A stretch of 64,000 nucleotides of DNA, taken from Candidatus Woesearchaeota archaeon (GTDB lineage Archaea; Nanobdellota; Nanobdellia; Woesearchaeales; GCA-2686295). Where the stretch lies: contig CALDOJ010000036.1 of the NCBI GenBank assembly GCA_937912225.1, positions 31,191 through 95,190 of the forward strand. The letters are read 5' to 3'. Both the position numbers and the translations under genes were made by a program. Shown here piece after piece: positions 10,585 through 29,215 of this stretch (its first letter is position 1; each line of letters opens with the position of its first letter). The notes under the pieces are model-generated. The model was not told where the DNA came from. It saw only the letters and a list, made by a program, of their open reading frames with translations, and ran no database searches.

Positions 10585-10643
10585 ATTTTAAGTTCTAACC
10601 TCTTTTTTTAATAGTTCAATACATTCCAATATTTAAATCCGGT

Positions 10644-12548
10644 TCATTCTAAAAACTCAGTTGTAAAAACAGTTTCAATATCAAAAGAGTTTTCAAGTTC
10701 TCCAACAGAATCTAAATCTTCATATAGTTTCTGCCATTTTTCTTTAGTCATAAAACCTATTTTTTGTGATGAATCTGCTTTAAAATATTGAATTGAAGAT
10801 TGAAGCATGTTTTTTTGATGTACAGGGTCTAATCTTGCATCATATTCAAAAACAAATCCTGTTGAATCCTCAGGGTTTTCATAAACATACTCCCATCCTT
10901 TCAAAGTAGCTGATAAAAACTTTCTAACTAATTCCGGATTAGTTTTTATAAGCTCATCAGTTGTAAAGATAACATTATAATAACTATCAAATCCAAAATC
11001 TGAAGGGTACAAAACATTGACTTCATAATTCTCTTCTAAAGCTTCTTGTAATTCATTTATAGAAACTCCAGCAACTAAATCAACATTTTCATCAAATAAA
11101 GATTGCAAACCATATTGTTTAGATACAAAATTAATATTTGAAGAATCAACACCATTATTTTCTAAAAGAATCTTTTTGATGATTGCTTGTGAACCAATAC
11201 TTGCAATAGTTGTTCCTTCTAAATCTTTAAGAGATAAAATATTTTTTTCTTTTAAAGACAAAAACACTGTTGGATTCTTATAATAAACTGCCGCAATCGC
11301 CTTTAGTTTTGCACCAGAACTAATCTTCTTCAATAAATCAATTGGAATAGTAACTCCAAATTGATCATCTCCATTTATAACTCTATCTTCAATTGACGCA
11401 TCATAACCTGCTGAATGCAAATCAACTTTTAATCCTTCAGCACCATAATATCCTAGTTGGTCTGCAGCATAGAAACCTACGAATTGATTTTGATGCAACC
11501 AAGATAATTTTACATTTACTTCTTCTTCTTCTTCTTCTTCAGAATAAATTTTCTCTAAAAATTTAGTTGTATAAACTAATTCAGAACCAATTGGTCTACT
11601 TAATATTCCTTGTTCAAATAAAATTCTTTGAGTACCTTCCCATTCTTTAGATTCCATCCACCCAAGTGGACTGTCACCAGTATGAATTAAAGGAATACTC
11701 TGACTTAACATGTAAGTTTCATGTTCTCTTGTGCTATCAACAGCGTATTTTAAAACAGTTGTAACTGTTTCTTCTTCATTCTCAATAGCGTATTGCCAGC
11801 CTTTCAAAGTAGCTCTTAGAAAATCTTCTACTAATTCAGGATTATTATTAATCATATCATCAGTTGTAAACAATACATCTGCATAAATATTAGCTCCATA
11901 ATCGGCCATTAAAATCGTGTTTACTTCATGACCTGCTTGCATTGCTAAATGTGGTTCGTTAATAATATAACCAGTTGATACATCAGTATCACCAGCTAAT
12001 AATTCAGTCGCATCATAACCAATAGTTACTTCATTAATTTGACTACGATCAATCTTAAGCCTATTCATCATAGATGCATACAAAATTCCGACATTAATAT
12101 CAGTTCCATCACTAGCTCTTTCAATACCAACAGTTTTACCAACAAAATCTTGAGGACTAGTAATTCCGCTAGTTCCTAAAGAGTAAGCAACAACTGGATT
12201 AATTTTATATATTACTGCAATAGCTTTTAGTGGTAGACCTTGTTCTCGAGCTAAAATTAATTCATCAGCACCAGTTATTCCAAATTCGACATCACCTTTA
12301 GCAACAGCAGATATGGTTGGTTCTTCAAATGAAAAAGGCTCTATATTAACATTTAATCCTTCATCAGAATAAAAACTGTTTTCTTTAGCAACATAATTAC
12401 CTGCGAATTGAGATTGATGAAGCCATTTAAGTTTTAAAGTTACATCAGTTAGTTCTTTTTCTTTAAATAAGAAAAAACTAGATAACACTAAAATAGCAAC
12501 TAAAACAATAGCTGAGTTAATTAAAAAGGTTTTTTTTGTATGTTTCAT
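10644..12548 (-). CDS. Tandem-duplicated NMT1/THI5-like (NitT/TauT-type) solute-binding protein, membrane/signal anchored
   Basis: Two homologous halves (LKLKWLHQSQFAGNYVA... and VKLSWLHQNQFVGFYAA...) joined by an E7 linker. N-terminal hydrophobic anchor. Confidence 0.65.
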   Translation of the reverse strand: MKHTKKTFLINSAIVLVAILVLSSFFLFKEKELTDVTLKLKWLHQSQFAGNYVAKENSFYSDEGLNVNIEPFSFEEPTISAVAKGDVEFGITGADELILAREQGLPLKAIAVIYKINPVVAYSLGTSGITSPQDFVGKTVGIERASDGTDINVGILYASMMNRLKIDRSQINEVTIGYDATELLAGDTDVSTGYIINEPHLAMQAGHEVNTILMADYGANIYADVLFTTDDMINNNPELVEDFLRATLKGWQYAIENEEETVTTVLKYAVDSTREHETYMLSQSIPLIHTGDSPLGWMESKEWEGTQRILFEQGILSRPIGSELVYTTKFLEKIYSEEEEEEEVNVKLSWLHQNQFVGFYAADQLGYYGAEGLKVDLHSAGYDASIEDRVINGDDQFGVTIPIDLLKKISSGAKLKAIAAVYYKNPTVFLSLKEKNILSLKDLEGTTIASIGSQAIIKKILLENNGVDSSNINFVSKQYGLQSLFDENVDLVAGVSINELQEALEENYEVNVLYPSDFGFDSYYNVIFTTDELIKTNPELVRKFLSATLKGWEYVYENPEDSTGFVFEYDARLDPVHQKNMLQSSIQYFKADSSQKIGFMTKEKWQKLYEDLDSVGELENSFDIETVFTTEFLE

Positions 12549-12566
12549 TTATTAGCCTCCAGCTCT

Positions 12567-13355
12567 TTAAATCCATTTATTAGTTATTTCTTCTATTTGT
12601 TTTCCCCAAATCATCGTACCTAATACTTGATTAACTTCATTCATCAAAAGATTATTTTCTTTCATTGAAGCTAAGCCATAAAATTCTTGAGTAAAAGGAG
12701 TACCTACTACTTTTAATGAAGGATTATTTTTAACCAATTCTAAACCTGCAATGTAATCTATAATGATTGCACTTAAGTTATCATTCAATAATGCAACTGT
12801 TGCAAGATCATAATCTTCATAAGATAATACTAAAGATTCACCAGCATATTTTACTGCTTCATCATAACTAGTTGTATCCATTTGAACACCAACTTTTTTA
12901 CCAAGTAAATCTTCAGGAGTTAAAACTGATTCATCTTCAGCACTCACAACAATTACTTGACCGGCATTAAAATAAGGGATGGAAAATAACATTTCTTGAG
13001 ATCTTTCATCAGTAATAGTTATTGAAGAAATTGCAAAATCAACTTCTCCAGCTTTCACAGCAACGAATAATTCATCCCAACCATAATTAACAAATTCAAT
13101 TTCTAAATTTAAACGCAAAGCTATTTCTCTTGCAACATCAACGTCTATTCCTGCAAATTCACCATTTTCATCTAAGAACTCCATTGGTTCATAAGGAATA
13201 TTTGTACCAACAATTAACTTTCCTCGTTCTTGTACTTTTGAAAACGAATCATCACTTAATTGTTCATTTAACAATTCATCATTAGTTGATGTACAACTAA
13301 TAGTCATCAAAGACAATATTACTAGTACTAAAAAAAACGCTTGTTTATATTTCAT
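12567..13355 (-). CDS. Family-3 (amino-acid type) solute-binding protein, probable lipoprotein
   Basis: LIVGTNIPYEPMEFLDENGEFAGIDVDVAREIA...VDFAISSITITDERS...FSIPYFNAGQ. Signal ends in MTISCTS. Confidence 0.75.
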   Translation of the reverse strand: MKYKQAFFLVLVILSLMTISCTSTNDELLNEQLSDDSFSKVQERGKLIVGTNIPYEPMEFLDENGEFAGIDVDVAREIALRLNLEIEFVNYGWDELFVAVKAGEVDFAISSITITDERSQEMLFSIPYFNAGQVIVVSAEDESVLTPEDLLGKKVGVQMDTTSYDEAVKYAGESLVLSYEDYDLATVALLNDNLSAIIIDYIAGLELVKNNPSLKVVGTPFTQEFYGLASMKENNLLMNEVNQVLGTMIWGKQIEEITNKWI

Positions 13356-13368
13356 ATTTATTTCACCT

Positions 13369-16300
13369 TCATTGTTTTTTCTTTAATCGTTTAATTTCTT
13401 CTTTTAGTTTGATCATTTGTAATTCTCTATTAATTGCATACGTATGAAATTTTTCAAGTTCTTCAGTTCTTCTCTTCAATGCTTCATCAGATTTTTTTCT
13501 ATGAGTAACATCTCTAAGAGCTCCTGCTATTCCAATAATCTTCCCAGAAGAATTTTTAATAGGTGCTTCATCAATCTCAGCCCAAAATATTTCTCCATTT
13601 TTCTTCTTGAATTCTAAAATATAAGGTTTTTGAATTACTCCTGTCTTTAAAGCTTTCACAGTTAGTTTTAAACCTTCATCATTAATAGGGTTTTTTGTTG
13701 TTAAAGTAGTCCATTTAACCATCATCTCTTCTGGTGTGTAACCAAATACTCTTTTAGAAAGAGGATTCACATATGATAATTTATGATTTGTATCATGAAT
13801 GTAGAACATGTCATCACTATGTTCAATAATAGTTTTATATTTTTTCTCACTAGCTTCTAACAAGTTCTCTGCTTCTTTTTGATCAGTTATATCTCTAAAT
13901 ATTTCCATAATAACTTTTTTACCTTTAAGATTCATACCAACATGATTAATTTCATAAGTTCTATTCCCAGCAACCCCTGTTGTAATAATACTTCTTCGCT
14001 CACCTAATTTAATAGGTTTCTTCAATGGACAATCACCACATTGTTTTTTATTATCCTTATAAAGATTATAACATTTCTTTCCAATTGCTTTTTTTCCAAA
14101 AATGTTTAAGAAAAATTCATTCATGTAAAGAATATTTAAGTTTTCATCAACAATATCCATTCCTTCAGGTAAAGCCTTAAGAATATTTTCTGAAAACTCT
14201 TTTTCTTTTCGAAGTTCTCCTTCCGCAGTCTTTATATTTGTGATATCTGAAAGAACTCCCTCATAACCTTTCGCCACACCATTTTTATTATATACAATTC
14301 TAACACTATCTCGCACCCATTTTATATCTCCAGTCTTAGTTTTAAGTTTATACTCACTAAAAAAGTATTTATCTTTTTTCTTAAGAGCTTTATTTAAAAC
14401 AGGAGTTATACGCGTTACATCATCCTCAAACATTAGACTAACATACGATCTAACTTTGTTATTAATAACATCACTAACAGGAAAACCTGTAACTTCTTTA
14501 AATGCAAAACTTGCAAAAGAAAAAGTCCAATTCATATCACATTTGTAAACAACACCAGGAACAGTGTCTATCATATTTCTAAATTGTTCCTCGCTTTCTT
14601 TTAATTTTTCTTCTGCAAGTTTTTTATCTGTAATATCTTGAGTTGTTCCTATTAATTTAACTACAACTCCTTTCTCTTTTTTAGTTTTGCATCTTGCATT
14701 TACCCACACAATGTTCCCAGAAGGTTGAACTAAACGTATTTCTATATTATATCCAACACCTGTTTTAGTAGTATTCGCAACAGAATCATTAAATAAATTC
14801 CAATCCTTTGGATGAATATATTTCTTATGCTCTTTATAATTAAGTTCTCCTTTTTTTGGATCAATACCAAATATTTTAAATAATTGTTCAGACCAAATAG
14901 GTTGTGCAGTTTTAACATCAAAACTCCAACTTCCAATACTGGCTACTTCTTGTGCTTCCATTAATTGTTCTTCACTTACTATTAATTCTTCTTCTGCTTG
15001 TTTTCTTTCAGTAATATCTCTAATAACACCAACTACTTTAACTGGTTTATTATTCTCATAAATTAATTGTCCAGATTCTTCAGCAAAAATATATTTTCCA
15101 TTCTTAAGTTTAAGTCTGAATTCTGTTGTCGTAACTTTTCCCGTCTTCCAGAGCATTTCAAAATCTTTCATAACAGATTTCAAATCATCAGGATGAACAA
15201 AATTAGACAAAGGTTTTCCAAGAACTTCTTTTACTCTATAACCATATTTACCAATATTATCTGAAACAAAAATAATATTTCCATTAATATCATAACTATA
15301 AATTATGTCTGAGACTTTATTAACAAGAGTTTTGAATTTTTCTTCACTTTCTTTTAACTTTTTCTTTGAAAGTTCTCTGGAAGTAATATCTTGAAAAATA
15401 CAATGTGTTCTTTGAAACACACCATTTTCATCATATTCTGCAGTTCCATTATATTCAACAAGGATATGTTCGCCATTTTTTTGTTTCATAGAAAAGAGAA
15501 TATCACAAGCAGTACCTGTTTTTTTAAAATTAGAAAAATTTGATTTAAAATCATTTAATTTATCAGATGAAACAAACTCTGAAAAATTCTTACCAATAAC
15601 ATCTTGTTTTTTATATCCAAGAATGTTTAACCAAGCAGGATTAACGTCTAATAAATCCCCGTTTGAATCTAAAGATTGATATGGAACTGGAATTTTTTGG
15701 TAAACTGTTCTAAATTTATTCTCGCTTTCTATTAACTTAGTTTCAAAAAGCTTTTTTTCAGTTATGTCTTGAGTTATTCCAATTGCATTTATTGCTTTAC
15801 CTTTTTTATCAAATAATATCTTTGCTTTTTCTTTTACCCACTTTACTTTTCCTTTTACTATAATACGATGTTCAAGATTATAAACTCCAGACTTTAAACC
15901 TTCAGTCCACTTTTTAGCAACATATTCTTTGTCATCAGGATGAATGGTTGCTAAAAAACTTGATAAATTTAGAGAAGCTCCTTGTTTAACTCCAAATATC
16001 TTATAATTTTGTTCAGTCCATTCTAAAATGTCATTAACAATATCTAACTTCCAAGTTCCAATCAAACCAATTTCTTGCGATTTTAATAATTTTGATTCAC
16101 TTTCTTTTAAAGCTTCTTCTGAAAGTTTTTTTTCAGTAATATCAACTGCAGCAGCATAAATATATTTACCGGCATGCGTTGTTTGCCATTCTAAAGTTCT
16201 ATAAGAACCATTCTTATGTTTATATCGATTAACAAAATTAATTATAGAGTCTCCTTTTAGTTGTTTTTCTTTAAGCTCAACAGCTATTCTTTTTAAATCA

Positions 16301-17742
16301 TCAGGATGAGAAAGTTTAGTCCAACCAAGATCTAAAAATTCTTTTTTAGTATAACCCAACATAGATTTACAAGAATTATTAACATTAATTATAGTCCCAT
16401 CAACTTTTGAAATAGTCATTAAAACAGGCGCAGATTCAAAAATATCTTTTAATTTTTCTTCACTTTCTCTCAAATCTTCTTCTGCTTTCTTACGTTCTGT
16501 TGTTATAGTAAAATAAACTGATATGCCTTCTTTAGAAGGGTAAACTCTAACATCATACCAATTAATATAAGGTTTCTTTCCAAAAAAGATTTCAAAAGTA
16601 ACTAATTTATTATTTTTTAAAGCATAAGTATATTTTTCTTCAAATATACTTCCCTTAGCTTCTTTAAACACTTCATTAAATATTTGTTTGCCTAAAATAT
16701 CTTTGCTCTTTTTATTTAAAAGTTCTTCAGATTTTTTATTAAAATAAGTAAATCTAAGGTCTTGATTTAGTGTGAAAAATGCATCACTAATGCTTTCCAC
16801 AGTTGTTCTAAGTTTCTCTTCACTTTCAATTAATTTTTTTCCTATTCTATTTTTTCTCAGAAAATTGTTGAAAAGACCACTTATTGTTGAAATTTCGTCC
16901 TTAACTTTTTTATCTATTTTCGTCTCAGATTCAACAATATCCAAACCTATAAATCCTTTTAATTCATTGTTCTCTGTTAAAGGTATGGTGATTAAAGATT
17001 TGATTTTTTGTAATTGAAAATGTTTTTTTTCTAATTTTGCTTCAGAAGGTAATTTTGCTACACTTTCAACAACAAAAGGTTTTAGTTTTAGTATTTGTTT
17101 ATTAAACCAAGGTAATTCTTTTTTTAAATTAATATTTTTTAAATTATTTATTTCTGGCTTCACTCCTTTTCTACACCATTCATGAGTATTTGACATAAAC
17201 TTTCCTGAAACAGAAAAAATATAACTTCTATCTGCATGAAAATAATTTCCAATAGTTTCTAAAGCTTTATTTATAACATCATCAACTAATTCTTTATCAT
17301 AATCAATAAAAGACATAGAAAGTTCATTTAAGATATTCTCAAACAACAATTTTTGCTTTAAAAGTTTTTCTGCGTTTTTTTGTTCAGTAATATCTCTAAG
17401 AATTGTTTGTAAAGCAATTACTTTACCATTTTTCTTTATTGGTCGACTTTTATACTCCATAAAAAAGTTTCCTTTCGGAGCAATTATTTCAACAGAACCA
17501 TGAGTTGGTTTACCTTTAGCTAAGTCAAGCATTTCTTTTGTAAGCTGAAGAACATGTTTTTTTACAACCAATTTATACGTGGACTCACCAATTAAATCTG
17601 ATTCTTTAAAGCCATATTTATTAACTGCTTTATTTGCATAAAGAACTCTACCTTTTAGATCTATAAATAGAATTATATCTGTAAAGTTATCAAACAGGTC
17701 TGATTTAAAATTACTAGTACTAATCTCTGGTTTTTTACCCAT
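13369..17742 (-). CDS. Giant cytoplasmic multi-PAS/PAC (+GAF-like) sensor protein without output domain
   Basis: Ten recurring PAC-end linkers D[IV]T-x-[KR]K-x-EE-L-x-SE counted by eye. A GAF-like segment near residues 150-290. One PAS carries C-x10-C-x2-C. The protein ends in a short coiled coil. Confidence 0.8.
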   Translation of the reverse strand: MGKKPEISTSNFKSDLFDNFTDIILFIDLKGRVLYANKAVNKYGFKESDLIGESTYKLVVKKHVLQLTKEMLDLAKGKPTHGSVEIIAPKGNFFMEYKSRPIKKNGKVIALQTILRDITEQKNAEKLLKQKLLFENILNELSMSFIDYDKELVDDVINKALETIGNYFHADRSYIFSVSGKFMSNTHEWCRKGVKPEINNLKNINLKKELPWFNKQILKLKPFVVESVAKLPSEAKLEKKHFQLQKIKSLITIPLTENNELKGFIGLDIVESETKIDKKVKDEISTISGLFNNFLRKNRIGKKLIESEEKLRTTVESISDAFFTLNQDLRFTYFNKKSEELLNKKSKDILGKQIFNEVFKEAKGSIFEEKYTYALKNNKLVTFEIFFGKKPYINWYDVRVYPSKEGISVYFTITTERKKAEEDLRESEEKLKDIFESAPVLMTISKVDGTIINVNNSCKSMLGYTKKEFLDLGWTKLSHPDDLKRIAVELKEKQLKGDSIINFVNRYKHKNGSYRTLEWQTTHAGKYIYAAAVDITEKKLSEEALKESESKLLKSQEIGLIGTWKLDIVNDILEWTEQNYKIFGVKQGASLNLSSFLATIHPDDKEYVAKKWTEGLKSGVYNLEHRIIVKGKVKWVKEKAKILFDKKGKAINAIGITQDITEKKLFETKLIESENKFRTVYQKIPVPYQSLDSNGDLLDVNPAWLNILGYKKQDVIGKNFSEFVSSDKLNDFKSNFSNFKKTGTACDILFSMKQKNGEHILVEYNGTAEYDENGVFQRTHCIFQDITSRELSKKKLKESEEKFKTLVNKVSDIIYSYDINGNIIFVSDNIGKYGYRVKEVLGKPLSNFVHPDDLKSVMKDFEMLWKTGKVTTTEFRLKLKNGKYIFAEESGQLIYENNKPVKVVGVIRDITERKQAEEELIVSEEQLMEAQEVASIGSWSFDVKTAQPIWSEQLFKIFGIDPKKGELNYKEHKKYIHPKDWNLFNDSVANTTKTGVGYNIEIRLVQPSGNIVWVNARCKTKKEKGVVVKLIGTTQDITDKKLAEEKLKESEEQFRNMIDTVPGVVYKCDMNWTFSFASFAFKEVTGFPVSDVINNKVRSYVSLMFEDDVTRITPVLNKALKKKDKYFFSEYKLKTKTGDIKWVRDSVRIVYNKNGVAKGYEGVLSDITNIKTAEGELRKEKEFSENILKALPEGMDIVDENLNILYMNEFFLNIFGKKAIGKKCYNLYKDNKKQCGDCPLKKPIKLGERRSIITTGVAGNRTYEINHVGMNLKGKKVIMEIFRDITDQKEAENLLEASEKKYKTIIEHSDDMFYIHDTNHKLSYVNPLSKRVFGYTPEEMMVKWTTLTTKNPINDEGLKLTVKALKTGVIQKPYILEFKKKNGEIFWAEIDEAPIKNSSGKIIGIAGALRDVTHRKKSDEALKRRTEELEKFHTYAINRELQMIKLKEEIKRLKKKQ

Positions 17743-17788: not shown

Positions 17789-18925
17789 TTATTCGTCGGA
17801 ACTTTTAAACATATCTTCTGCAGTTGTTGGTTTTGTTTCAGATTCTTGTTCTGTTTGTACAACTGGTTCAGCTTTAGCAGGTGCAGAGTCTATAGATGCA
17901 AGTTCTGCAGGTGCAGTTTGTTTAACAGGTTCTTCTTCAACAGACTTTTCTTCGCTTTCACCTTCAGCTTTTACTTCTTGCTTTTTTCCTCCAAACAAAC
18001 CAAAAAGTTTTTTCTTTTCTTCAGGCTTAGATTCTTCTTCACTGTTTCTTTCTTCAGCTTCTGATTCTTCCAAATTAACCTTATACTTCTTTTGTAATTT
18101 ATCAGTTAATTGTTTAAACATTAATTTTAAATCAGTTTTTGTATGTTTACTTCTTTCGTCTAATAATTTAATAACTGTGCCTGTATGTTTCTCAAAATCA
18201 TTAAATTTGTTAAGCAAATCAACGAATTCTTTTTTCTCAGCTTTCTGATCAGTTTGAACTCTCATTTTATCAAAATCAGCTTGCATTTTTTTGAACTCAC
18301 GATTTATATCTTTAACTTGTGAATCAAATTTATCAAATTCAGAAAACTTTTTCTCAACATCTAAAAAAATCGTTTCAACTCTATCAGCATGTCTTTCAAC
18401 AATTGACTCGACTTTTTTAAGATTAGCCAACTCATTTTTTATTTCTTCATGTAATTTTATTATTTGCTCAGTTCCTTTGTAAACATCCATTTGACCACGC
18501 ATACCTTTCAACTGAGACATGATATCCTTCATCAAAGATTCATTTCCTTCAATGTTGGCCTTAAGAGCTTCAATTTTCCCATCTGTTTTTCGAAGTTCAG
18601 TCATGAATACACTTGGTTGAACTGTTTCTACTTCATCAATGGCTTTTGTGGCTTTTACTTCTACTTTTGAAAAAGCTTGTTCTAAATCATTAAGCATACC
18701 TCTAATCTCACCCATTTGTTCAGTTACAATTCCAAATCTTTCAGTAGTGGATTTTCTTATCTCATTTAAAGAATCAATCTGACCTTTTATTTTAGCCAGT
18801 TCTATTTCTACTTGTCCACCAAGATTAGCACCTCTATTTTTAGGGGATGATTCTTCTATTTCCTGCTCAGCAGGATTCTCATCACCTTCTCCTATAGTAG
18901 GGCCTGATTTATTCCAAAAAGCCAT
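17789..18925 (-). CDS. Coiled-coil protein with acidic N- and C-terminal tails
   Basis: Long heptad-like Lys/Glu/Leu core and acidic low-complexity ends. Overlaps the upstream gene by 17 nt. No family recognised. Confidence 0.45.
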   Translation of the reverse strand: MAFWNKSGPTIGEGDENPAEQEIEESSPKNRGANLGGQVEIELAKIKGQIDSLNEIRKSTTERFGIVTEQMGEIRGMLNDLEQAFSKVEVKATKAIDEVETVQPSVFMTELRKTDGKIEALKANIEGNESLMKDIMSQLKGMRGQMDVYKGTEQIIKLHEEIKNELANLKKVESIVERHADRVETIFLDVEKKFSEFDKFDSQVKDINREFKKMQADFDKMRVQTDQKAEKKEFVDLLNKFNDFEKHTGTVIKLLDERSKHTKTDLKLMFKQLTDKLQKKYKVNLEESEAEERNSEEESKPEEKKKLFGLFGGKKQEVKAEGESEEKSVEEEPVKQTAPAELASIDSAPAKAEPVVQTEQESETKPTTAEDMFKSSDE

Positions 18926-19775
18926 TATCTACCTCTTTTTTTTCTTTTAATATGTTTGACATTATTCTCTTATCCCTTATCCCTTTAATGTTTTTCGCTA
19001 ACTCAGGTTGATGAAAAACAAATTCAATCCACATTGAAAAATCATTATCATAGTTTCGTGTATGAAACTCAAAATCCTCAGGGTTCATAAAACTTAAAGC
19101 AGTTATTAAATCTTGTATTGATGTTAAAAGCTTCCCACTTTTCAAACGAAAGAATTTTTCAGGATCTATTACTAGTTCAAGTTTTGGTTCTGTAACTGTT
19201 TCATCAACTTCACTCTGAGGCTCTACTTCTAGCTTATCAGATTCTGTGGTTGTGACTGTCTCTTCAGAAGTATTTTCTGGCTTAACTGGTTCATTCTGAG
19301 GCTCTACTTCTGGTACATAAGAAGTTTCCTTCTGAACACTAGAACTTTCAGTTCTTTGTGTACTAGTAGCTTCGTTACTATTTTCTTCTTTTATATCTAA
19401 ATCTTCTCTGTTTGAATTATTCTCTTTCATTCCTTCTTCAAAAGCTTGAGCCTTTTCTTCATTTAACTTTTCTTTAATCTTTCTTTCAACTTCTGCTTTA
19501 ATATCTACCAAAGGTAATCTTGATTCTTCAATTAATTCCTCTTCTGAAAATTTTAAAATATTCTTAATAACTTCATAGTCTTCTTGTTTTCGAGTATACT
19601 GAGCCCATCGTAATTTTGAATCAAGACTTCTAAGATGAAAGTCTGCTATTGAAGGATTATGACCTTCTTTTCTTAATTCAGTTATTCTTGACTTTAACTC
19701 TCGAACATGACTTCTCAAATCCTCTGTTAAAATTTCATTTTCTTTATCCGAAACTAATTGTTTATTTTTACTCAT
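18909..19775 (-). CDS. Acidic protein with C-terminal copy of the NDF-x-W[VI] ~70-aa domain
   Basis: C-terminus KFFRLKSGKLLTSIQDLITALSFMNPEDFEFHTRNYDNDFSMWIEFVFHQPELAKNI aligns with the domains in the two upstream genes. ATGA overlap. Confidence 0.5.
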   Translation of the reverse strand: MSKNKQLVSDKENEILTEDLRSHVRELKSRITELRKEGHNPSIADFHLRSLDSKLRWAQYTRKQEDYEVIKNILKFSEEELIEESRLPLVDIKAEVERKIKEKLNEEKAQAFEEGMKENNSNREDLDIKEENSNEATSTQRTESSSVQKETSYVPEVEPQNEPVKPENTSEETVTTTESDKLEVEPQSEVDETVTEPKLELVIDPEKFFRLKSGKLLTSIQDLITALSFMNPEDFEFHTRNYDNDFSMWIEFVFHQPELAKNIKGIRDKRIMSNILKEKKEVDNGFLE

Positions 19776-20602
19776 TTCAATTTCTCATTTACTTCATCAT
19801 TCAAGTCATTTATATCAGAATCAAGTGCTCTTACTTGTCCTTCTACAAAACTTGGTTTTCCAAAAAATAATTTTCCTAAAAATTTATTATTACTAATTTT
19901 TTCTTTTATTTTTTGAAAAAAGTTTTTCTTTGATTTTTCTTTTGAATGAACTGATTCTTTCTTTTTAACTTTCTTTTTCACTTCCTTTTTTACTTCTTCG
20001 TCTTCCTTCTTAATTTCTTCAGCTTCTTTTTCAACTTTTTTCTCAGATTTTTCCTCTCTTGCTTCTTTTGATTCATCAAGTGCTTTTTGAATTTCTACAA
20101 CTTCAGGACTATTGTCTTCTTCAATTGTTTTATTCAAATTAATTTCTGGCAATTTAGAATCAGAATCAACTTCTTTTTCTGGCTCAACCAAGGGTTTAAC
20201 TTCTTGTTCATCAGCTTCTTTATTTGAATCGTCAGAAGTTTCATCTTTGAACATATCATCAATTTTCTTATTAGATTCTTGTTCTGATTCAAAAGGTTCT
20301 TTCTTAACAGGTTCTGATTCTGTTTTCTGATTTTCATCCGGATTCTTAATTAAATCGTGAAAATAATCATCGATTAATTTAATCATAGAATCCTTATCTT
20401 TAGCTTTTTCTAAAACATCCGCCAGTTCATTATTTTTGAAAACACCTTTAACCCAAATAGCAAAATCATTCTTCTCTGAATTAACATGCAAAGCGAATTC
20501 TTCATCAGATCCTTTATCTAAAAAAACTCTAAATTCACCTATAGTTCTCAAAACTTCTCCATTGCCTAAATAAAAATATTCCTCTTGTTTCAAATTCCTC
20601 AC
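19772..20602 (-). CDS. Acidic/Lys-rich protein with N-terminal copy of the NDF-x-W[VI] ~70-aa domain
   Basis: N-terminus EEYFYLGNGEVLRTIGEFRVFLDKGSDEEFALHVNSEKNDFAIWVKGVFKNNELADVL. Start is ambiguous: GTG 20602 lies inside GAGGTGA, and TTG 20593 is an alternative. Confidence 0.5.
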   Translation of the reverse strand: MRNLKQEEYFYLGNGEVLRTIGEFRVFLDKGSDEEFALHVNSEKNDFAIWVKGVFKNNELADVLEKAKDKDSMIKLIDDYFHDLIKNPDENQKTESEPVKKEPFESEQESNKKIDDMFKDETSDDSNKEADEQEVKPLVEPEKEVDSDSKLPEINLNKTIEEDNSPEVVEIQKALDESKEAREEKSEKKVEKEAEEIKKEDEEVKKEVKKKVKKKESVHSKEKSKKNFFQKIKEKISNNKFLGKLFFGKPSFVEGQVRALDSDINDLNDEVNEKLK

Positions 20603-20639
20603 CTCTTATGTGGATTTATTATTATTTGTTGTTTTCTAA

Positions 20640-22829
20640 TTAACCCTCCTGTAAAACATTAATTAATTCATCTTTTGAGTTTGCTGTTTGCATTCTATCG
20701 GCTAATTGGTCGTTGTGAAATACTCCTCGAACCCAACTAGCAAAATCGTTTTTATCATTAGACACATATTGTTTAAAATCATCATCATTAGTTTCTCTTA
20801 AATACTCGACTAATTCAAGTACGGATTTTATTTCTTTACCGCTTTGTAATCTAAAATATTGATCGGATGAAATGTCTTTTTTAACAACAATTTTTTCTAA
20901 ATCAGCATCTAATTCCTCTTCTTCCTTTTTCTTTTCAGTTCGAGATTCAGAATTTTCAACAAGTTTAGTTTCTGTTTCTAAATGTTCTTCTAATTCTTTT
21001 TTATCTGAATTTTCCAATTGAACAGGCTCTTCTGCTTCTTCTTTTACAGCAGTTTCTGGTTTAACTTCTGATTCAGAATCATCATCAGCCATCGCAGCAA
21101 ACGCTTTTTCTTGTTCTGTTATAGGCTCTTTCTTTTCAGGTTCAACAGCTTCTGCAAGTTTTGCCTCCTCTTCCTTTTCCTCTTTTTCTTCTACAGCTTC
21201 AACTGCTTCTTTATCAGATGTTGAGTCAAACCACTTTTCAGATTCTAATAATTTTTTCTCTTCATCAGTTAACTCTGGAAGTTTCTGTTTTTTACTCCTT
21301 AAATCAATCAAATCTAACATTTGTTGTTTATCTGGTTTAACCATCATATGCTGTGCTAATTCTTTATCTCCAACAGCATCTTTAACCCAATCAGCAAACT
21401 CATTCTTTTCTTTATTTACATGCTGATCATAATCACTTTGTTTCATCGCAGATAACTCATCATATAATGCTTTCAAACTAATAACTAACATACCATTTAC
21501 TAAACTTAGAATTTTATCAGGCGACACTTCTTTTCTGAAAAGATCAACTTCAACTGTTTCACCATCAGCGCTGCCACTAGCAGCTTCAACTGCTTCAGCT
21601 TCTTCTCTTGATTGTTTTGCTGCGTTAATAGATGCTTTAAAGTCATCTTCAGATACAAGTTTCTTTTCTTTCTTCTTAGGAACTTTTCCAATTTTTTCCC
21701 AATTTTTCTTAACTCTAGGTCTTAATCCTTCTAAATATACTTCAACCATGTTAAAATTTCCAACTTTTACTTTATCTAAAGATAATTTTAGTTCCAATTT
21801 CATATCAAATACATCAATTTCTAACTCTTCTAATTGTTCAAGTTCATACACTAATTGATCAATTTCATCATTGTATTTGTTATACTTTTCAAGTTCTTCA
21901 TCTGTTAATCTTTGTACTGAATGAAGGATTGGTCTGAATGTTACGAAGTATGGTTGACCTCTATTATATGACGCGTTTTGAACCATTCCACTTCCAACAC
22001 TGGCTTTAACTAATGATTTTAAAACACTATCACCATACTTAGTTTTAATTCTATCTAAGTCTCCTTCATCTCTAGTTCTCATTTGAACTTCTGTGTTAAT
22101 GTTCGCTTTAATCTGACCTACGAAGTCGGCCAAAACCTGAGATACTAACATAATCCCTATTCCCCACTTACGAAACTCTCTACATCCTCTTTCAATCTGT
22201 ACGAATCCATCACCACTACCTCCAAACTTAGGTAGAATTCTGTGAATCTCATCATAAATAATCATGAGTTTTAATGGCTCACTTTCAGTAGGTCTTTCAT
22301 CAAAAATTTGTCTAATAGTATTAGCTACAACTAAATCAATTCCTTTCGGATCCAACTTATTCATAGCATAAATTTGAATTTCGCCAGGTTTTGCATTCTT
22401 CTGAATTTCAATTACTTCTCGAGGATTAGTTATTTGTTTAACATTTCCATTGAATGCTTTTGCATCTTTAGGTTTCATTCCAAATCCAGGATAATACTTC
22501 AACATTCCTTTTTCTTTACATGGACGCAACATTCCGCTCCATTGAGCTGTAGGGTCAAAGGCAATTACCGCTACATCTTTTAACAAACATTCTTCTATTA
22601 TTACTTGAGCTGAAATAGATTTTCCTCCACCAGTTGACCCTGCTACAATTGAATGAATCTTTAACTGGTCTAAATCAAAATAAGTTTTATGGTCTGTTTC
22701 AGCAATTTTTCCCCACCAACCACTTCTAGGTCCTGGTTTTGGTAACTGAGTATAATCAACTTTAAGATGGAACCTTTTATTGGAATCCATTTTTTTCCAG
22801 ATTATAAAAGCTATTAATGCAATTGTCAA
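20640..22829 (-). CDS. Membrane-associated HerA/FtsK/VirB4-clade P-loop ATPase with two C-terminal NDF-x-W[VI] domains
   Basis: Walker A AGSTGGGKS, Walker B LMIIYDEIH and MLVSQ following it. Acidic low-complexity spacer. Two repeat domains, at residues ~431-508 and ~655-729. The called TTG start leaves only a partial TM (see finding on the in-frame TAG). Confidence 0.6.
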   Translation of the reverse strand: MTIALIAFIIWKKMDSNKRFHLKVDYTQLPKPGPRSGWWGKIAETDHKTYFDLDQLKIHSIVAGSTGGGKSISAQVIIEECLLKDVAVIAFDPTAQWSGMLRPCKEKGMLKYYPGFGMKPKDAKAFNGNVKQITNPREVIEIQKNAKPGEIQIYAMNKLDPKGIDLVVANTIRQIFDERPTESEPLKLMIIYDEIHRILPKFGGSGDGFVQIERGCREFRKWGIGIMLVSQVLADFVGQIKANINTEVQMRTRDEGDLDRIKTKYGDSVLKSLVKASVGSGMVQNASYNRGQPYFVTFRPILHSVQRLTDEELEKYNKYNDEIDQLVYELEQLEELEIDVFDMKLELKLSLDKVKVGNFNMVEVYLEGLRPRVKKNWEKIGKVPKKKEKKLVSEDDFKASINAAKQSREEAEAVEAASGSADGETVEVDLFRKEVSPDKILSLVNGMLVISLKALYDELSAMKQSDYDQHVNKEKNEFADWVKDAVGDKELAQHMMVKPDKQQMLDLIDLRSKKQKLPELTDEEKKLLESEKWFDSTSDKEAVEAVEEKEEKEEEAKLAEAVEPEKKEPITEQEKAFAAMADDDSESEVKPETAVKEEAEEPVQLENSDKKELEEHLETETKLVENSESRTEKKKEEEELDADLEKIVVKKDISSDQYFRLQSGKEIKSVLELVEYLRETNDDDFKQYVSNDKNDFASWVRGVFHNDQLADRMQTANSKDELINVLQEG

Positions 22830-22850: not shown

Positions 22851-24614
22851 CTATTGCCAGAAAAATAATCCAAAGAAATACAACTGCCAAAATGGTGTTA
22901 CTACTTCAAAAATTTCACTTGTTCCAGCGCTAAATCCCAAATAATTAGCAGTTACTCTAATAATATAAACTCCTCTGGGTGCATCTTTAGGAATCTTAAC
23001 TGTTTTTAATAATGAAAAAGATGTTTTCAATAACACATTAGTACTATAAGTCCATAAAGTTGTGTTACCAGTTTCATCTTGAATAGTATAAAATAATGAA
23101 ACAGGATATTCTTGATCAGATAATAAATTTTTCAAATCTGTTTTGAATTGTAAATCTTCATTTGGATGAACTTGTTTCTTAGAAGAATCTAATTCCATTA
23201 ACAAAGCTTGTACTGGAAGTTGATTTGCAGATATTAATTCAACAGTTAATGGAATAGATGCATTAAAATCTCCTGTTATTTCTATAGTTCCATTATAAGT
23301 TCCTAATTCTCCTCTTCCAAAAATAGTTGGAGTAATACTACCCCTTTCATTTGGAGCAACTAATAATTTATTCTTATCCAACTCAACTAAATTAGCAATA
23401 TCACCTGTTACTTTGAAAAATGCCTGGGTTGTTCCTTCTTTATAACTATAAACAACTATTTCTTCTTGTAAGAAGTTTCCTAATCTAAGTTTTCTATTAA
23501 TAGTATTAAGTGAAATAACTATATCTGTTCCTTCAACTCTTTTTGGTTGTTCTACTTGTGGTACGAGTGGCGCTTCACCAGGACCAACATCATCACCAGG
23601 ACCAACATCTCTACCAGGACCAATACCAGTAAAATCGTTAGGTGTTACTGCTTGAACCAATATGATATTATGAATTGTTGTTTGATTCTTTACAATTGAA
23701 ACATTGTTTGCATATACATCATAACCTGATTTTATTGCAAAAATAGTATATTGTCCTTCAGGAGCTGTAATATTATAAAAACCAAACGTGTCAGATGCAT
23801 CATTATAATTCGAAATATGTATAATTACATCAGATATTGGAACTCCTGCTTCAGTTGTTACAATTCCTGCAATATTTCCTGGATTTGGTAAATCACCTTC
23901 TCCTTCAGCACATATATCATATGGATCTGGAAAGAAATAATATCTTTGCTCTGTAGCATTTGGAATTGGTAATATCATTTGATAATTTAACTGTCTTCCG
24001 TTAAAACCATTAGTCCAATTTCCGAGTTTTGGTGCTACAAATATTAATTCTCCATTACCATCTTGAAGAACACCCAAAGTGAAATTTTCAATACTTCCAT
24101 CCCCTCCATTAAGTGTTGTGGCTGGAATAGTTATTGGAGTATTACCTATTTCAATTGTAATATTATCTTTAAAAGTATTTGTTCCTGATAACTTTGCAGT
24201 GAATGAATCATATTGGTCCATTCCTAAAAAAGTATCTAGCACCGTTAAATTAGCTGGCTGAATATTTACAAAATCTAATAATTGAGGCATAACTGTACTT
24301 GCATACACTTCATGATCAATATCTGTTTCTAAACAATCAAATAATAAATTTGCTTCTAAAGTTTCCAATCCTTCTAAATCATAAAATGCTTCATTTTGAA
24401 ATCCTGGAACTCTTACTGCATAACCATATACTCCTGACCATAAAAAAGCAGGTAAACTCATATCAATATTTACTTCATAAATTACTCCTCCTTTCCCTGA
24501 AAAAGTATTAGTTGCCCAACCAATAAACTTGCTTGCAAAAACCAATCCGAATATAGCAAGAGCTACTAATAAAACTAATAATACTGTTTGTGCAGCTTTC
24601 TCTACATGTTTCAT
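22851..24614 (-). CDS. Secreted/anchored beta-rich envelope protein (carboxypeptidase-regulatory-like + Ig-like modules)
   Basis: N-terminal TM/signal TVLLVLLVALAIFGLVFA. GIVTTEAGVPISDVIIHISN...GQYTIFAIKSGYD. GPGRDVGPGDDVGPGEAP linker. Short hydrophobic C-terminus ends at TAG. Confidence 0.55.
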   Translation of the reverse strand: MKHVEKAAQTVLLVLLVALAIFGLVFASKFIGWATNTFSGKGGVIYEVNIDMSLPAFLWSGVYGYAVRVPGFQNEAFYDLEGLETLEANLLFDCLETDIDHEVYASTVMPQLLDFVNIQPANLTVLDTFLGMDQYDSFTAKLSGTNTFKDNITIEIGNTPITIPATTLNGGDGSIENFTLGVLQDGNGELIFVAPKLGNWTNGFNGRQLNYQMILPIPNATEQRYYFFPDPYDICAEGEGDLPNPGNIAGIVTTEAGVPISDVIIHISNYNDASDTFGFYNITAPEGQYTIFAIKSGYDVYANNVSIVKNQTTIHNIILVQAVTPNDFTGIGPGRDVGPGDDVGPGEAPLVPQVEQPKRVEGTDIVISLNTINRKLRLGNFLQEEIVVYSYKEGTTQAFFKVTGDIANLVELDKNKLLVAPNERGSITPTIFGRGELGTYNGTIEITGDFNASIPLTVELISANQLPVQALLMELDSSKKQVHPNEDLQFKTDLKNLLSDQEYPVSLFYTIQDETGNTTLWTYSTNVLLKTSFSLLKTVKIPKDAPRGVYIIRVTANYLGFSAGTSEIFEVVTPFWQLYFFGLFFWQ

Positions 24615-27553
24615 GATGCAATCCTCATTTGTAAAGTTTTTATTTTTTCAAACAACTCGGTTTTATAATCTTCATCTAATCTCTTATACACTTCTTCTAG
24701 CTGATGATAATAGTATCTTGCTTTTCCAATATTATCAGCTTTTATATTATTCTCAATATCTGAAACTAATTTCTGTGAATAACCATGATCCAACTTAGTA
24801 CATAAATTCCTAATTTTTTGATAAACTTCATTTTTTGAAGGAGTAGATAATTTTTCATAATACAATTTAATCTCTCTATAAATAAAATGAGCTTTATCAA
24901 GGTCATGAACTTCTAAATTATCAAGAGCATCATTTATCAATAAGTTAATAGTATGAATTTTCTTATCGCCAAATAAAACATAGTAAAAGAATCTCATCTT
25001 ATCTATTCTAATATGACTATGCCCTGCATATACTAATACTAAAACCATTATTAAAACTATCAAATAACCTTTTTTATCCATATTAACATTAAAGTCAAAT
25101 ATGGAATTTCCAGTTATAGAAGTTACCGCTTTAGTATATGAATCTTCAAACAAGACTGTTTGTGCTTTATCAATGTTCTCCAAATCTATTTGTTCATCAA
25201 AATAATAAATTATTTTTTGAGGGTTATCAAATTCAATTAATGGATCTTTCTCCAAAATTTTATGATTTGTTATTATTGTTAAATCATCGGTTGTCTCTGC
25301 TAATTCTTTTGGTATAGATTCTACAACTCTTAATTTATATGTGCTATTCACATATTTTAATTCTTTAACCACTAAAGTAATAGTTTTCTTTGTTCCATCA
25401 AAGTATTCTAATTCAACATTTCTGGCAGTTGTTGATATAGTTGCTTTTGATTGAGTTAATTTACTTGCTTCAAAAAATTTCTCTTTATCTAAATATTTTT
25501 TTATAGTTGAATATTTATCAGATACTTCTTTTAATTCAGGATCTCGAATATATTTAATAAACGCTTTATTTTCTAACACATTCACATTAACAATTATAGA
25601 ATTATAAGTATCAGATATTTTAGTTTCTAATGTTTGTATTTTATCTTCTTTTTCTTTTTCAGATAAAACATTATTGTAAGTTGCATCATTTATATCTCTA
25701 TAAGCTCTTTGTATTGTTACAATTGCACTTTTGATATTTTTCTCTATATCTAATACATCTATTACCCGTCGTTCATGAAGTCCTTTAGTTGATAAAGTAT
25801 CAATTATTGCGTATAATTCATCAGTAAATTCTGTTTCTGAAAAAGTTGTTTTTACGTCTATTACTTCATCAATTATTTTAAAAGTTCTTTCTTCTGTTGC
25901 TTTTGAATTCTTATCCGAATCTTCACATTCAATTTTCCATTTATAATCTTTATAATCTAATCCTGTCAATGAAAATATTTGTTCTGTGTTATCTGAAACT
26001 ATTTTTGTTCCTTTCTTTGTATACCAACTTTCATCCTTCTCTGCAGTATACAACACACAAGTTGTATCTCCTTGATCAGATACTTTAAATTTAACATCTA
26101 TACTTTTCGAATTAAATTCTTGTTTATCTGCAGGTGAAATAAGTTCAATACTTGGCGCAGTTACATCTTTTCCTTCTATTTCTGCAAGGTAAGTAATATT
26201 TTCCCTTAACCAGATTTCATCATAGAGAACTTCATAATTAGATTTTAAAACCGTTAATCTGTAAGTGCCTCTTGAAATATAAAATGTGTATTGACCTTTA
26301 CTATTTGTTATTCCTTCTCTATTTGCTAGTTCGATTCTTGCTCCAGATATAACACTTCCAGAATTTATATCTTTAACAGTTACAGCCAATTCCAATACAT
26401 TCTTAACAGTTATTGTTGTATTAAGAGACTTAGAATTTCCTTCTTCGTCAGTAACTGTTAACTTTTCAATGTATGAACCAGAATTTTCATAAGACATATT
26501 TATAGTATCATTAGTTTTAGTTGTTCCATCGCTTAAAGTCCAAAGATAAGTATATTCACCAATTCCGCCATTTACATAAGCTTCTAGTTCTGTTGGTTCA
26601 TCAACATCAACAGATTTATCTCCAACAACAGAAATTGTTATACTATTTTCAACTTCAAAACTTATTACATCAGTTAAAGTTGTATTTTGATATTCTAACT
26701 CTGTATTTGCAGCATAAGTTCCTACTTCTGTTGTGTAAGTCATTGATTCTGTTCTTGGAAATGTTCCATTTGTTATGGTTATTGTTTCTCCTAATGTGAA
26801 CCATCCTCCGCTTGAAGTTCCTATTTCAATTGTCATATTTGAACCATTTAATGCATTTATTGTGAAAGTTCCTGCTTCTCCTAAGCTGTAAGTTTCTTTA
26901 TTCAAACTAATGTTCAAGAATGGTGTTTCAATTTCTTCTTCAACGGTTTCATTCTCTATTGTAAATATTCTATTGCCACTAATATTTGCATTCCCAACAC
27001 TATCTTGACAACTTATATTCCAGTAATGCATTCCACTATCTGCAGAAATATTAACTATTTTTGAAGTTCCATTAATTGCAGTTATTGCTTGTATTGCATC
27101 ATCTAAAGTTAATATACAATTCATGCTTGTTGCAAAGTTATCTGTTGCTACGAAGGTTACATTCGTTAAATTAGTTAAGTTTGCATTATTGATTGGATTC
27201 TCTAAAACAATAATTGGTGCTGAGAGATCAATATTTATTGTTCGCTCAATAATACTTTCGCTGTTGTTCTCATCTGAGCAGTTAATATACCATTCATGAA
27301 CTCCTTCGGTCAAGGTTTCAGTAAATGTATTACTGCTTTCTGCTGATTTACTTTGTTCTTCTATTTGGTCTATAAATAAACTACAAGTGGTAGAATTAGT
27401 GTAATTAGTGAGTGTGAATGTAAAGTTAACATTTGAAGTATTATACACTGCATTATCTACAGGTACAATATCAGACATTGTTGAAGAAATTATTTGAAGA
27501 CTTAAAACTAACATGACCATCAACATAATTAATTTTGCTGATTTACTTCTCAT
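24611..27553 (-). CDS. Large surface protein (repeated Ig-like modules, PKD-like, carboxypeptidase-regulatory-like), TM anchor and helical cytoplasmic tail
   Basis: Signal peptide KLIMLMVMLVLSLQIISS. Repeats with a C...W[YN]I.C.D pattern. PKD-like EYTYLWTLSDGTTK...LTVTDEEGNS. TM GYLIVLIMVLVLVYAG. ~130-aa helical tail. Confidence 0.6.
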   Translation of the reverse strand: MRSKSAKLIMLMVMLVLSLQIISSTMSDIVPVDNAVYNTSNVNFTFTLTNYTNSTTCSLFIDQIEEQSKSAESSNTFTETLTEGVHEWYINCSDENNSESIIERTINIDLSAPIIVLENPINNANLTNLTNVTFVATDNFATSMNCILTLDDAIQAITAINGTSKIVNISADSGMHYWNISCQDSVGNANISGNRIFTIENETVEEEIETPFLNISLNKETYSLGEAGTFTINALNGSNMTIEIGTSSGGWFTLGETITITNGTFPRTESMTYTTEVGTYAANTELEYQNTTLTDVISFEVENSITISVVGDKSVDVDEPTELEAYVNGGIGEYTYLWTLSDGTTKTNDTINMSYENSGSYIEKLTVTDEEGNSKSLNTTITVKNVLELAVTVKDINSGSVISGARIELANREGITNSKGQYTFYISRGTYRLTVLKSNYEVLYDEIWLRENITYLAEIEGKDVTAPSIELISPADKQEFNSKSIDVKFKVSDQGDTTCVLYTAEKDESWYTKKGTKIVSDNTEQIFSLTGLDYKDYKWKIECEDSDKNSKATEERTFKIIDEVIDVKTTFSETEFTDELYAIIDTLSTKGLHERRVIDVLDIEKNIKSAIVTIQRAYRDINDATYNNVLSEKEKEDKIQTLETKISDTYNSIIVNVNVLENKAFIKYIRDPELKEVSDKYSTIKKYLDKEKFFEASKLTQSKATISTTARNVELEYFDGTKKTITLVVKELKYVNSTYKLRVVESIPKELAETTDDLTIITNHKILEKDPLIEFDNPQKIIYYFDEQIDLENIDKAQTVLFEDSYTKAVTSITGNSIFDFNVNMDKKGYLIVLIMVLVLVYAGHSHIRIDKMRFFYYVLFGDKKIHTINLLINDALDNLEVHDLDKAHFIYREIKLYYEKLSTPSKNEVYQKIRNLCTKLDHGYSQKLVSDIENNIKADNIGKARYYYHQLEEVYKRLDEDYKTELFEKIKTLQMRIAS

Positions 27554-28588: not shown

Positions 28589-29215
28589 ATGAATTTATTG
28601 ATATTAGGACCACAAGCTTCCGGAAAAGGAACACAAGCAAAAAGAATTGCTAAAGAACTAGGCATACCACACATCTCAACAGGAGATATTTTTAGAGACA
28701 ATATTGAAAGAGGAACAGATTTAGGGAAGAAAGTTCTTATGATTCAAGGCGGAGAACTAGTTCCGGATGAATTAACAAATAGCATCGTTAAAAATAGACT
28801 AAAACAAGAAGATTGTGCAAATGGATACATATTGGACGGGTATCCAAGAAATCTTGTACAAGCAGAATACTTAAACAGTATTAGCCAAATAGATGCAGTT
28901 ATTGATTTAGAAGTTCCAACAAAAGTAATAATGGAAAGAATTACTAGCAGAAGAGCTTGTGGAGATTGTAAAGCAGATTATAATATAATTTATATGAAAC
29001 CAAAACAAGAAGGTATCTGTGATAAATGTGAAGGAGAATTAATTCAACGAAAAGACGATACTCCAGGACCAATTAAAAAAAGATTAGATATTTATTATTC
29101 CCAAACACAACCATTAATTAGCTTCTATAAAGAACAAGGAGTCTCTCTTAAAGAAATTGATGGAGTAGGAACACCTGGCGAGATTCTTGATAGAATAATG
29201 AATGTTTTGCGTTAA
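28589..29215 (+). CDS. adk: Adenylate kinase, long bacterial-type with Cys4 zinc lid
   Basis: P-loop GPQASGKGTQ, LVPDELT, GYILDGYPRN. Lid CGDC...CDKC. Confidence 0.9.
   Translation: MNLLILGPQASGKGTQAKRIAKELGIPHISTGDIFRDNIERGTDLGKKVLMIQGGELVPDELTNSIVKNRLKQEDCANGYILDGYPRNLVQAEYLNSISQIDAVIDLEVPTKVIMERITSRRACGDCKADYNIIYMKPKQEGICDKCEGELIQRKDDTPGPIKKRLDIYYSQTQPLISFYKEQGVSLKEIDGVGTPGEILDRIMNVLR

Follow-up and report, generated by a model that had tools for sequence, protein, structure and literature searches.

The closest described relative of the protein domain considered here is OrfY from Thermoproteus tenax, a solved chain in the Protein Data Bank (PDB entry 4CSO) that its depositors named 'ORFY PROTEIN, TRANSCRIPTION FACTOR'; the corresponding Pfam family is PF19027 (DUF5752). 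No relevant paper on DUF5752, PF19027, OrfY or 4CSO was found in our literature searches. In T. tenax, orfY probably adjoins treT, the trehalose synthase gene; a paper on T. tenax trehalose makes no mention of OrfY. Here we analyze a stretch of 64,000 nucleotides from a Candidatus Woesearchaeota archaeon (contig CALDOJ010000036.1, positions 31,191 to 95,190 of the forward strand), which we call the window and which has a low G+C content (~29%). We find that four copies of an OrfY/DUF5752-type domain are dispersed over three consecutive genes, encoding a HerA-type ATPase and its two downstream neighbors, a 276-amino-acid (aa) and a 288-aa protein.

Four copies of a DUF5752-type domain

The four copies lie on the minus strand and each contains the signature of the domain. 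Expectation values (E) given here are for a profile that excludes the window and draws on 69 segments from other genomes.

21288-21536, minus strand: copy A1, residues 432-514 of the ATPase; signature HVNKEKNEFADW; PF19027 match over residues 472-513
20643-20882, minus strand: copy A2, residues 650-729 of the ATPase, up to the stop; signature YVSNDKNDFASW
20354-20602, minus strand: copy B1, residues 1-83 of the 276-aa protein; signature HVNSEKNDFAIW; E 9.9e-22, no Pfam match
18930-19178, minus strand: copy C1, residues 200-282 of the 288-aa protein; signature HTRNYDNDFSMW; E 1.2e-21, PF19027 at 17.3 bits (cut-off 23)

These segments are true copies of one domain. They align without gaps over ~77 columns and find one another by BLASTP with 27-36% identity (41-64 bits, E 1e-11 to 1e-20), and profiles from which one copy was left out recover the missing copy at E 1e-16 to 1e-24. 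With the profile from other genomes, all four score between E 1e-21 and 2e-28, and the next-best six-frame open reading frame (ORF) of the window reaches only E ~0.5; the window has no fifth copy. An earlier note on this DNA, made by eye, had placed four copies in three consecutive minus-strand genes and had described a domain common to a motor ATPase and two downstream gene products. Coordinates, BLASTP and the external profile bear this out, and the alignment proves significant by a profile method. The low-complexity acidic or lysine-rich linkers that the note saw between the copies are likewise present (28-37% Asp+Glu, 9-23% Lys+Arg, 16-19% hydrophobic). Its '~70-aa domain' is a genuine, independently folding domain, although the unit is longer than estimated, at 77-83 aa.

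The domain had been called unassigned and its family could not be named, and this is where the earlier description does not hold. PF19027 matches the ATPase at 32.1 bits in two stretches, above its gathering score of 23 and limited to model positions ~50-94 of 208, and the family is already listed on this very ATPase in public precomputed annotation. A domain profile of 73 sequences (alignment A4) has one match among solved structures, 4CSO, at E 1.4e-5. The match falls in two stretches of the chain, residues 63-87 and 135-191, each with the motif NDF[AS]RW (NDFARW and NDFSRW), and OrfY is therefore a tandem of two units, which accounts for the length of the Pfam model. The signature [HY]-x5-N-[DE]-F-x2-W followed by L-A is present in the four window copies and common to both OrfY repeats; across the 73 sequences the Trp is invariant and a Gly, a Leu and an Asn are nearly so. 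Within the unit, a short beta-hairpin precedes five helices, and its fold is that of the solved OrfY repeat; the compact two-repeat architecture of OrfY is absent from the window proteins. DUF5752 is not a well-characterized family with an unrelated role; it has no characterized role, and the docking function that the earlier note had suggested is left standing. A Nif11 match in one relative (23.0 bits, cut-off 23.8) was judged a resemblance of helix composition and rejected.

The two ATPase copies belong to recognizable subtypes. A1, of the form 'ILxLxNGMLV...KNEFADW', follows the ATPase core in nearly all relatives, and A2 has the form 'YFRLxxG...KNDFASW'. Between them, residues 515-649 (20883-21287, minus strand) form a linker of 37% Asp+Glu and 19% hydrophobic residues, which in relatives is 38-162 aa long and poorly conserved, and whose confidence in the predicted model of a homolog is low (predicted local distance difference test score <50).

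The carrier ATPase and its gene cluster

The carrier is an ATPase of the FtsK/HerA superfamily. We read a Walker A motif GSTGGGKS and a Walker B motif IIYDE; the protein matches DUF87 at 36.1 bits (cut-off 23.2) and HerA_C at 23.5 bits (cut-off 22), and solved HerA chains are distant matches (E 8e-5 to 5e-3). It has 729 aa counted from a TTG start and 716 aa in public gene calls. We found 696 homologs, whose names, where given, are overwhelmingly Woesearchaeota, Nanoarchaeota or 'archaeon'. Of the 120 best homologs, 119 have a domain copy after the motor domain, and 27 of them have at least two copies. The gene cluster and its downstream neighbor comprise the following genes.

24611-27553, minus strand: surface protein with a PKD domain, 980 aa, the conserved upstream partner in the cluster
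22851-24614, minus strand: extracellular part with a CarboxypepD_reg-like domain, 587 aa, fused to the ATPase in relatives
20640-22829, minus strand: HerA/FtsK-superfamily ATPase (DUF87), 729 aa, with copies A1 and A2 in its tail
19772-20602, minus strand: 276-aa protein with copy B1, a linker and a C-terminal segment of ~50 aa
18909-19775, minus strand: 288-aa protein with an N-terminal helical module, a linker and copy C1
17789-18925, minus strand: coiled-coil protein, 378 aa, with a disordered tail and without a domain copy
13369-17742, minus strand: PAS-rich protein, 1457 aa

The 276-aa and 288-aa genes overlap by 4 nucleotides and the 288-aa and 378-aa genes by 17, as fits an operon. Seventeen contigs, drawn from several samples, show the exact window arrangement. 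Loci L008 and L009, from two further Nanoarchaeota species, have an ATPase that is ~65% identical, fused to the extracellular part and equipped with two copies; after it come, in order, a 276-like gene whose copy is N-terminal, a 288-like gene whose copy is C-terminal, and a 378-like gene. Copy B1 is 42-44% identical to the copy in its L008 and L009 counterpart genes versus 31-36% identical to the other window copies. Given that B1 is nearer to its counterparts than to its neighbors, the layout is old and maintained, and the four copies were already in place in the ancestor of these species.

The layout varies beyond these species. In L005 and L006 the ATPase keeps one or more copies and the 378-like gene is retained, the 288-like protein is without the domain, and there is no 276-like gene; in L007 the ATPase, again with one or more copies, is accompanied by none of the downstream cluster genes. 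In the woesearchaeotal locus L013, a HerA ATPase with a C-terminal copy is followed 2.6 kb on by a run of three small genes, each with a single copy at its N-terminus. At least two copies per locus are also found in L010, L011, L012, L020 and L026. Taken by carrier, the domain is on both the ATPase and adjacent gene products in the window, L008, L009, L013 and L011, on the ATPase alone in L005-L007 and on the neighbors alone in L012.

Both partner proteins join a domain copy to a second conserved segment. In the 276-aa protein, an acidic and Lys-rich linker (residues 86-225) leads to a C-terminal segment (residues 227-275, window 19775-19927) that is 49% identical to its L009 counterpart; among the cluster-bearing loci L005-L009 and L013, counterparts of this protein were detected in L008 and L009 only. 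In the 288-aa protein, a helical N-terminal module (residues 1-104, window 19464-19775) is followed by a Ser/Thr/Glu/Pro-rich linker, and the module is kept in the domain-less ~170-aa proteins of L005 and L006. Neither the C-terminal segment nor the N-terminal module matches any Pfam family or PDB sequence, and PDB sequence searches with the whole 378-aa and 288-aa proteins gave nothing. Counterparts of the 378-aa protein are 54-64% identical in L005, L006, L008 and L009, and the only matches of the protein itself, to SMC and Rad50 models, are weak and of coiled-coil type. By eye we saw motifs resembling 'K-LFG-LFGGK' in the 378-aa protein ('KKKLFGLFGGKK', about residue 305) and the 276-aa protein ('NKFLGKLFFGKP', about residue 240); a pattern search of homologous loci did not recover the motif, which may be coincidental.

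In most homologs, the ATPase is the C-terminal half of a ~1,250-aa protein whose N-terminal half resembles the 587-aa ORF of the window, and relatives have one protein of ~1,250-1,350 aa that combines the extracellular part, a transmembrane helix and the HerA ATPase. In the window, a single in-frame TAG (22851-22853, minus strand) within the transmembrane helix divides the two ORFs. It aligns with a conserved Trp codon, the closest relatives reading 'FVWQWSLIL' and 'FMWQWIIAI' where the window reads 'FFWQ*GLII'. The TAG is identical in four independent assemblies and is thus not a sequencing error. We rejected a reassignment of the codon because TAG also terminates six other long ORFs of the window. 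It looks as if a fixed TGG-to-TAG change splits the gene, unless the stop is read through. At L006 (8569-12442), the public gene call of 813 aa begins far into a stop-to-stop ORF of 1,276 aa, with a 1.4-kb stretch left uncalled; the N-terminal extracellular half of this protein is probably missed by annotation and not absent.

Such membrane HerA-type machines, uncharacterized to date, are present in the chromosomes of several of the Woesearchaeota and Nanoarchaeota genomes examined and also in Methanosarcinales; a literature search combining HerA with DPANN returned nothing specific. The 980-aa surface protein has counterparts in L005-L009 and L013. The genes adk and truD adjoin the cluster in four divergent genomes (L001, L005, L006 and L007), and PADLOC returns generic HerA and weak coiled-coil matches only, with no evidence of a defense system. 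Given the conserved adk/truD synteny and the generic nature of the PADLOC matches, the cluster looks like one of chromosomal housekeeping type and not like a mobile or defense element.

The flanks of the cluster hold further genes. Conservation of neighbors was noted beside the ATPase gene in L001, L005, L006 and L007 (window 28589-29215). A small gene of ~80-98 aa always lies 5' of the ~1000-aa surface protein, and in some genomes an RHH_1 gene precedes it. Together with the constant adk/truD neighbors, this points to a chromosomal locus of ancient origin that may have a regulator of its own. On the minus strand, a dense block of sensory genes (window 5840-17742) begins immediately downstream of the cluster. 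Its 1457-aa protein has at least seven PAS domains and no recognized output domain, and the block also encodes two solute-binding-type proteins (an SBP_bac_3 protein and a double NMT1 protein), a dCache-HAMP protein and a 1156-aa dCache histidine kinase.

Family distribution and possible roles

We searched 1.84 billion representative proteins exhaustively with a HMMER profile of the four copies, and the family proved large and promiscuous. It counts 4,697 proteins (50%-identity clusters) at E <=1e-3 and 2,683 at E <=1e-10, and PF19027 matches 109 of the 142 top members. Word-indexed protein searches with domain alignments gave nothing useful (no match for one alignment, a single match for the 73-sequence alignment), and the names of cluster members were uninformative. 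The domain is found mainly in DPANN and Methanosarcinales archaea; species-representative genomes that have it are from Nanoarchaeota, Woesearchaeota, Methanosarcinales, Aenigmatarchaeota, an unclassified euryarchaeote, a Sumerlaeota bacterium and an unclassified bacterium. Family proteins range from an 80-aa stand-alone domain to 1,970-aa fusions, with the copy at the N-terminus, at the C-terminus or internal; disordered linkers often tether the domain, and some proteins consist of copies, disordered linkers and coiled coils alone. Two copies are present in 76 of the 149 best representatives, a list biased to multi-copy proteins since scores add up, and some tandems are almost back to back (P0171, 145 aa; P0144, 171 aa). 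As for which ATPases and operons carry the domain, a question raised by the earlier note, the search found membrane-anchored HerA-type, KaiC-like and MoxR AAA+ ATPases together with the multi-copy loci described above. Other fusion partners are CheW, a CheC-like protein and GH57, and one family protein matches the FlaC_arch model.

Two kinds of locus deserve separate mention. In L012 (71-9360, on the Methanosarcinales metagenome-assembled contig CAYNNM010000027.1), a fused membrane HerA ATPase homolog is followed by a CheC-like protein, two methyl-accepting chemotaxis proteins and CheW. A DUF5752-type domain sits at the end of both the CheC-like protein and CheW, and the ATPase tail is plain disordered sequence without a copy. 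From this gene arrangement, a chemotaxis-type module appears to be coupled to the HerA machine. In the second kind, GH57 glycoside hydrolases carry a C-terminal copy (L015, 8729-10225, Sumerlaeota bacterium; L016, 8798-10252, Aenigmatarchaeota). These fusions tie the family to alpha-glucan metabolism and extend it to bacteria.

What, then, might the domain do? The best-supported reading is that it serves as an adaptor for protein-protein interaction; homotypic docking, in which copies would bind one another and so recruit partners, is plausible. Pairwise action is common among domains known in both single and tandem form, and the OrfY tandem and the nearly back-to-back tandems of other family members point to units working as pairs. 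The 276-aa and 288-aa proteins have the build of adaptors, with a domain copy, a disordered linker and an independently conserved module, which supports an interaction role, as do the clustering of copies within proteins and gene neighborhoods and the conservation of the four-copy layout in other species. Under this model, the membrane-anchored and presumably hexameric ATPase would display the constant copy A1 just past its motor domain and carry A2 on a tether that is long and acidic. Each of the two partner proteins, of 276 aa and 288 aa, would couple one copy, through the disordered linker, to its second conserved module, and pairing of copies would recruit both proteins, and whatever their other ends bind, to the cytoplasmic face of the ATPase.

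Several observations weigh against homotypic docking or give it no support. A single-chain, and hence intramolecular, AlphaFold prediction gave no confident pairing of two copies. The domain is single in 11 of the 19 genome loci, several of which lie on very short contigs. In L005-L007, the ATPase keeps its copies in the absence of a 276-like gene and of any copy on a 288-like protein, which implies that partner copies are dispensable for the core machine, and in L012 the neighbors carry the domain and the ATPase tail does not. Lastly, the GH57 fusions fit ligand binding as well as they fit docking. Given the exceptions in L005-L007 and L012, we hold homotypic docking only tentatively and put it somewhat short of an even chance.

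Some of the same observations would also follow if every copy bound one common, non-homologous target, so that the carriers are co-localized with no mutual contact. Candidate targets are the 378-aa coiled-coil protein, the ATPase ring, the membrane and a polar scaffold. An address tag of this kind fits the functionally unrelated nature of the carriers (HerA, KaiC-like, MoxR, CheW, CheC-like, FlaC and GH57), the domain-bearing neighbors of a domain-less ATPase in L012 and the two copies left unpaired by AlphaFold, and the 378-aa protein is kept wherever downstream genes exist. However, no candidate target co-occurs in all contexts; the GH57 loci L015 and L016, for example, have no homolog of the ATPase cluster by tblastn. 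The back-to-back tandems and the two-repeat build of OrfY are also more simply explained by pairing, and we regard a common target as possible but doubtful.

A third explanation is that the domain senses a small molecule, either a sugar such as trehalose or an alpha-glucan fragment or else a nucleotide, and regulates the protein to which it is attached. The position of the domain at the C-terminus of GH57 enzymes in the Sumerlaeota bacterium and the Aenigmatarchaeote, its fusion to signaling proteins, the sensory genes near it in L012 and the window and the probable place of orfY beside treT are consistent with sensing, and the nearly invariant positions hold polar or aromatic side chains (the His, Asn-Asp-Phe and Trp of H-x5-NDF-x2-W), although the NDF...W stretch may be a mere helix cap and core tryptophan. 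Yet the 80-aa stand-alone forms and the proteins made of copies, linkers and coiled coils offer no output to regulate, four flexibly tethered copies per operon would be unusual for an allosteric sensor, and searches by fold revealed no resemblance to any ligand-binding fold so far described. We consider a sensor unlikely.

Nucleic-acid binding, by analogy with the DNA-reading C-terminal gamma domain of FtsK, is suggested by the words 'TRANSCRIPTION FACTOR' in the name of 4CSO and by the C-terminal position of the domain on an FtsK/HerA-superfamily ATPase, but it is highly improbable given that the domain is acidic rather than basic (median isoelectric point 5.4 over 368 instances, 83% below 7; window copies 4.7-6.1) and that structural searches gave no significant match to winged-helix or other DNA-binding folds.

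Returning to homotypic docking, a broader form of it can be put forward as speculation that we ourselves think improbable. DUF5752 would then be an archaeal 'bead-on-a-string' adaptor, mainly of DPANN and Methanosarcinales, that builds multivalent cytoplasmic scaffolds around a membrane HerA machine with a large extracellular part, and some lineages would plug CheW, CheC-like, KaiC-like and MoxR proteins into this hub.

Comparison with known systems

Homotypic adaptor domains shared by a nucleoside triphosphatase (NTPase) and its neighbors are familiar from Death-fold domains and from the 'effector-associated domains' of prokaryotic conflict systems. The arrangement in the window resembles these in its apparent logic of use, with a small helical domain placed on a core NTPase and on adjacent gene products. 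In contrast, it has no sequence or fold relationship to those domains, and its context is not one of immunity. If the bead-on-a-string model is true, the family would correspond, among prokaryotic housekeeping systems, to the interaction networks of Death-fold or SAM type.

A second comparison is with the accessory domains of molecular pumps, such as the gamma domain of FtsK and the partner-binding C-terminal tails of coupling proteins. Here, too, a small domain sits on a flexible linker after the motor, a position that suggests selection of a substrate or partner. The window domain differs in having another fold, in being acidic and in occurring on many proteins that are not ATPases. Copy-copy docking, if true, would provide a handle on an uncharacterized membrane HerA-type machine.

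The comparison with OrfY itself is the most direct. What this analysis adds is a correct label and an occurrence map: the segment is the repeat unit of the catalogued family DUF5752, which has a solved structure and no established function. The two-repeat Pfam model under-detects the unit, seeing only part of it (positions ~50-94), missing the copy of the 276-aa protein and leaving another of the four below threshold. OrfY, a protein of ~216 aa, is a compact two-repeat tandem, whereas the window presents single beads on long disordered tethers spread over three proteins. The unit thus behaves as a mobile single domain beyond the compact OrfY tandem, and the window architecture is a distinctive, dispersed form of a known but uncharacterized family; the domain annotation is well supported.

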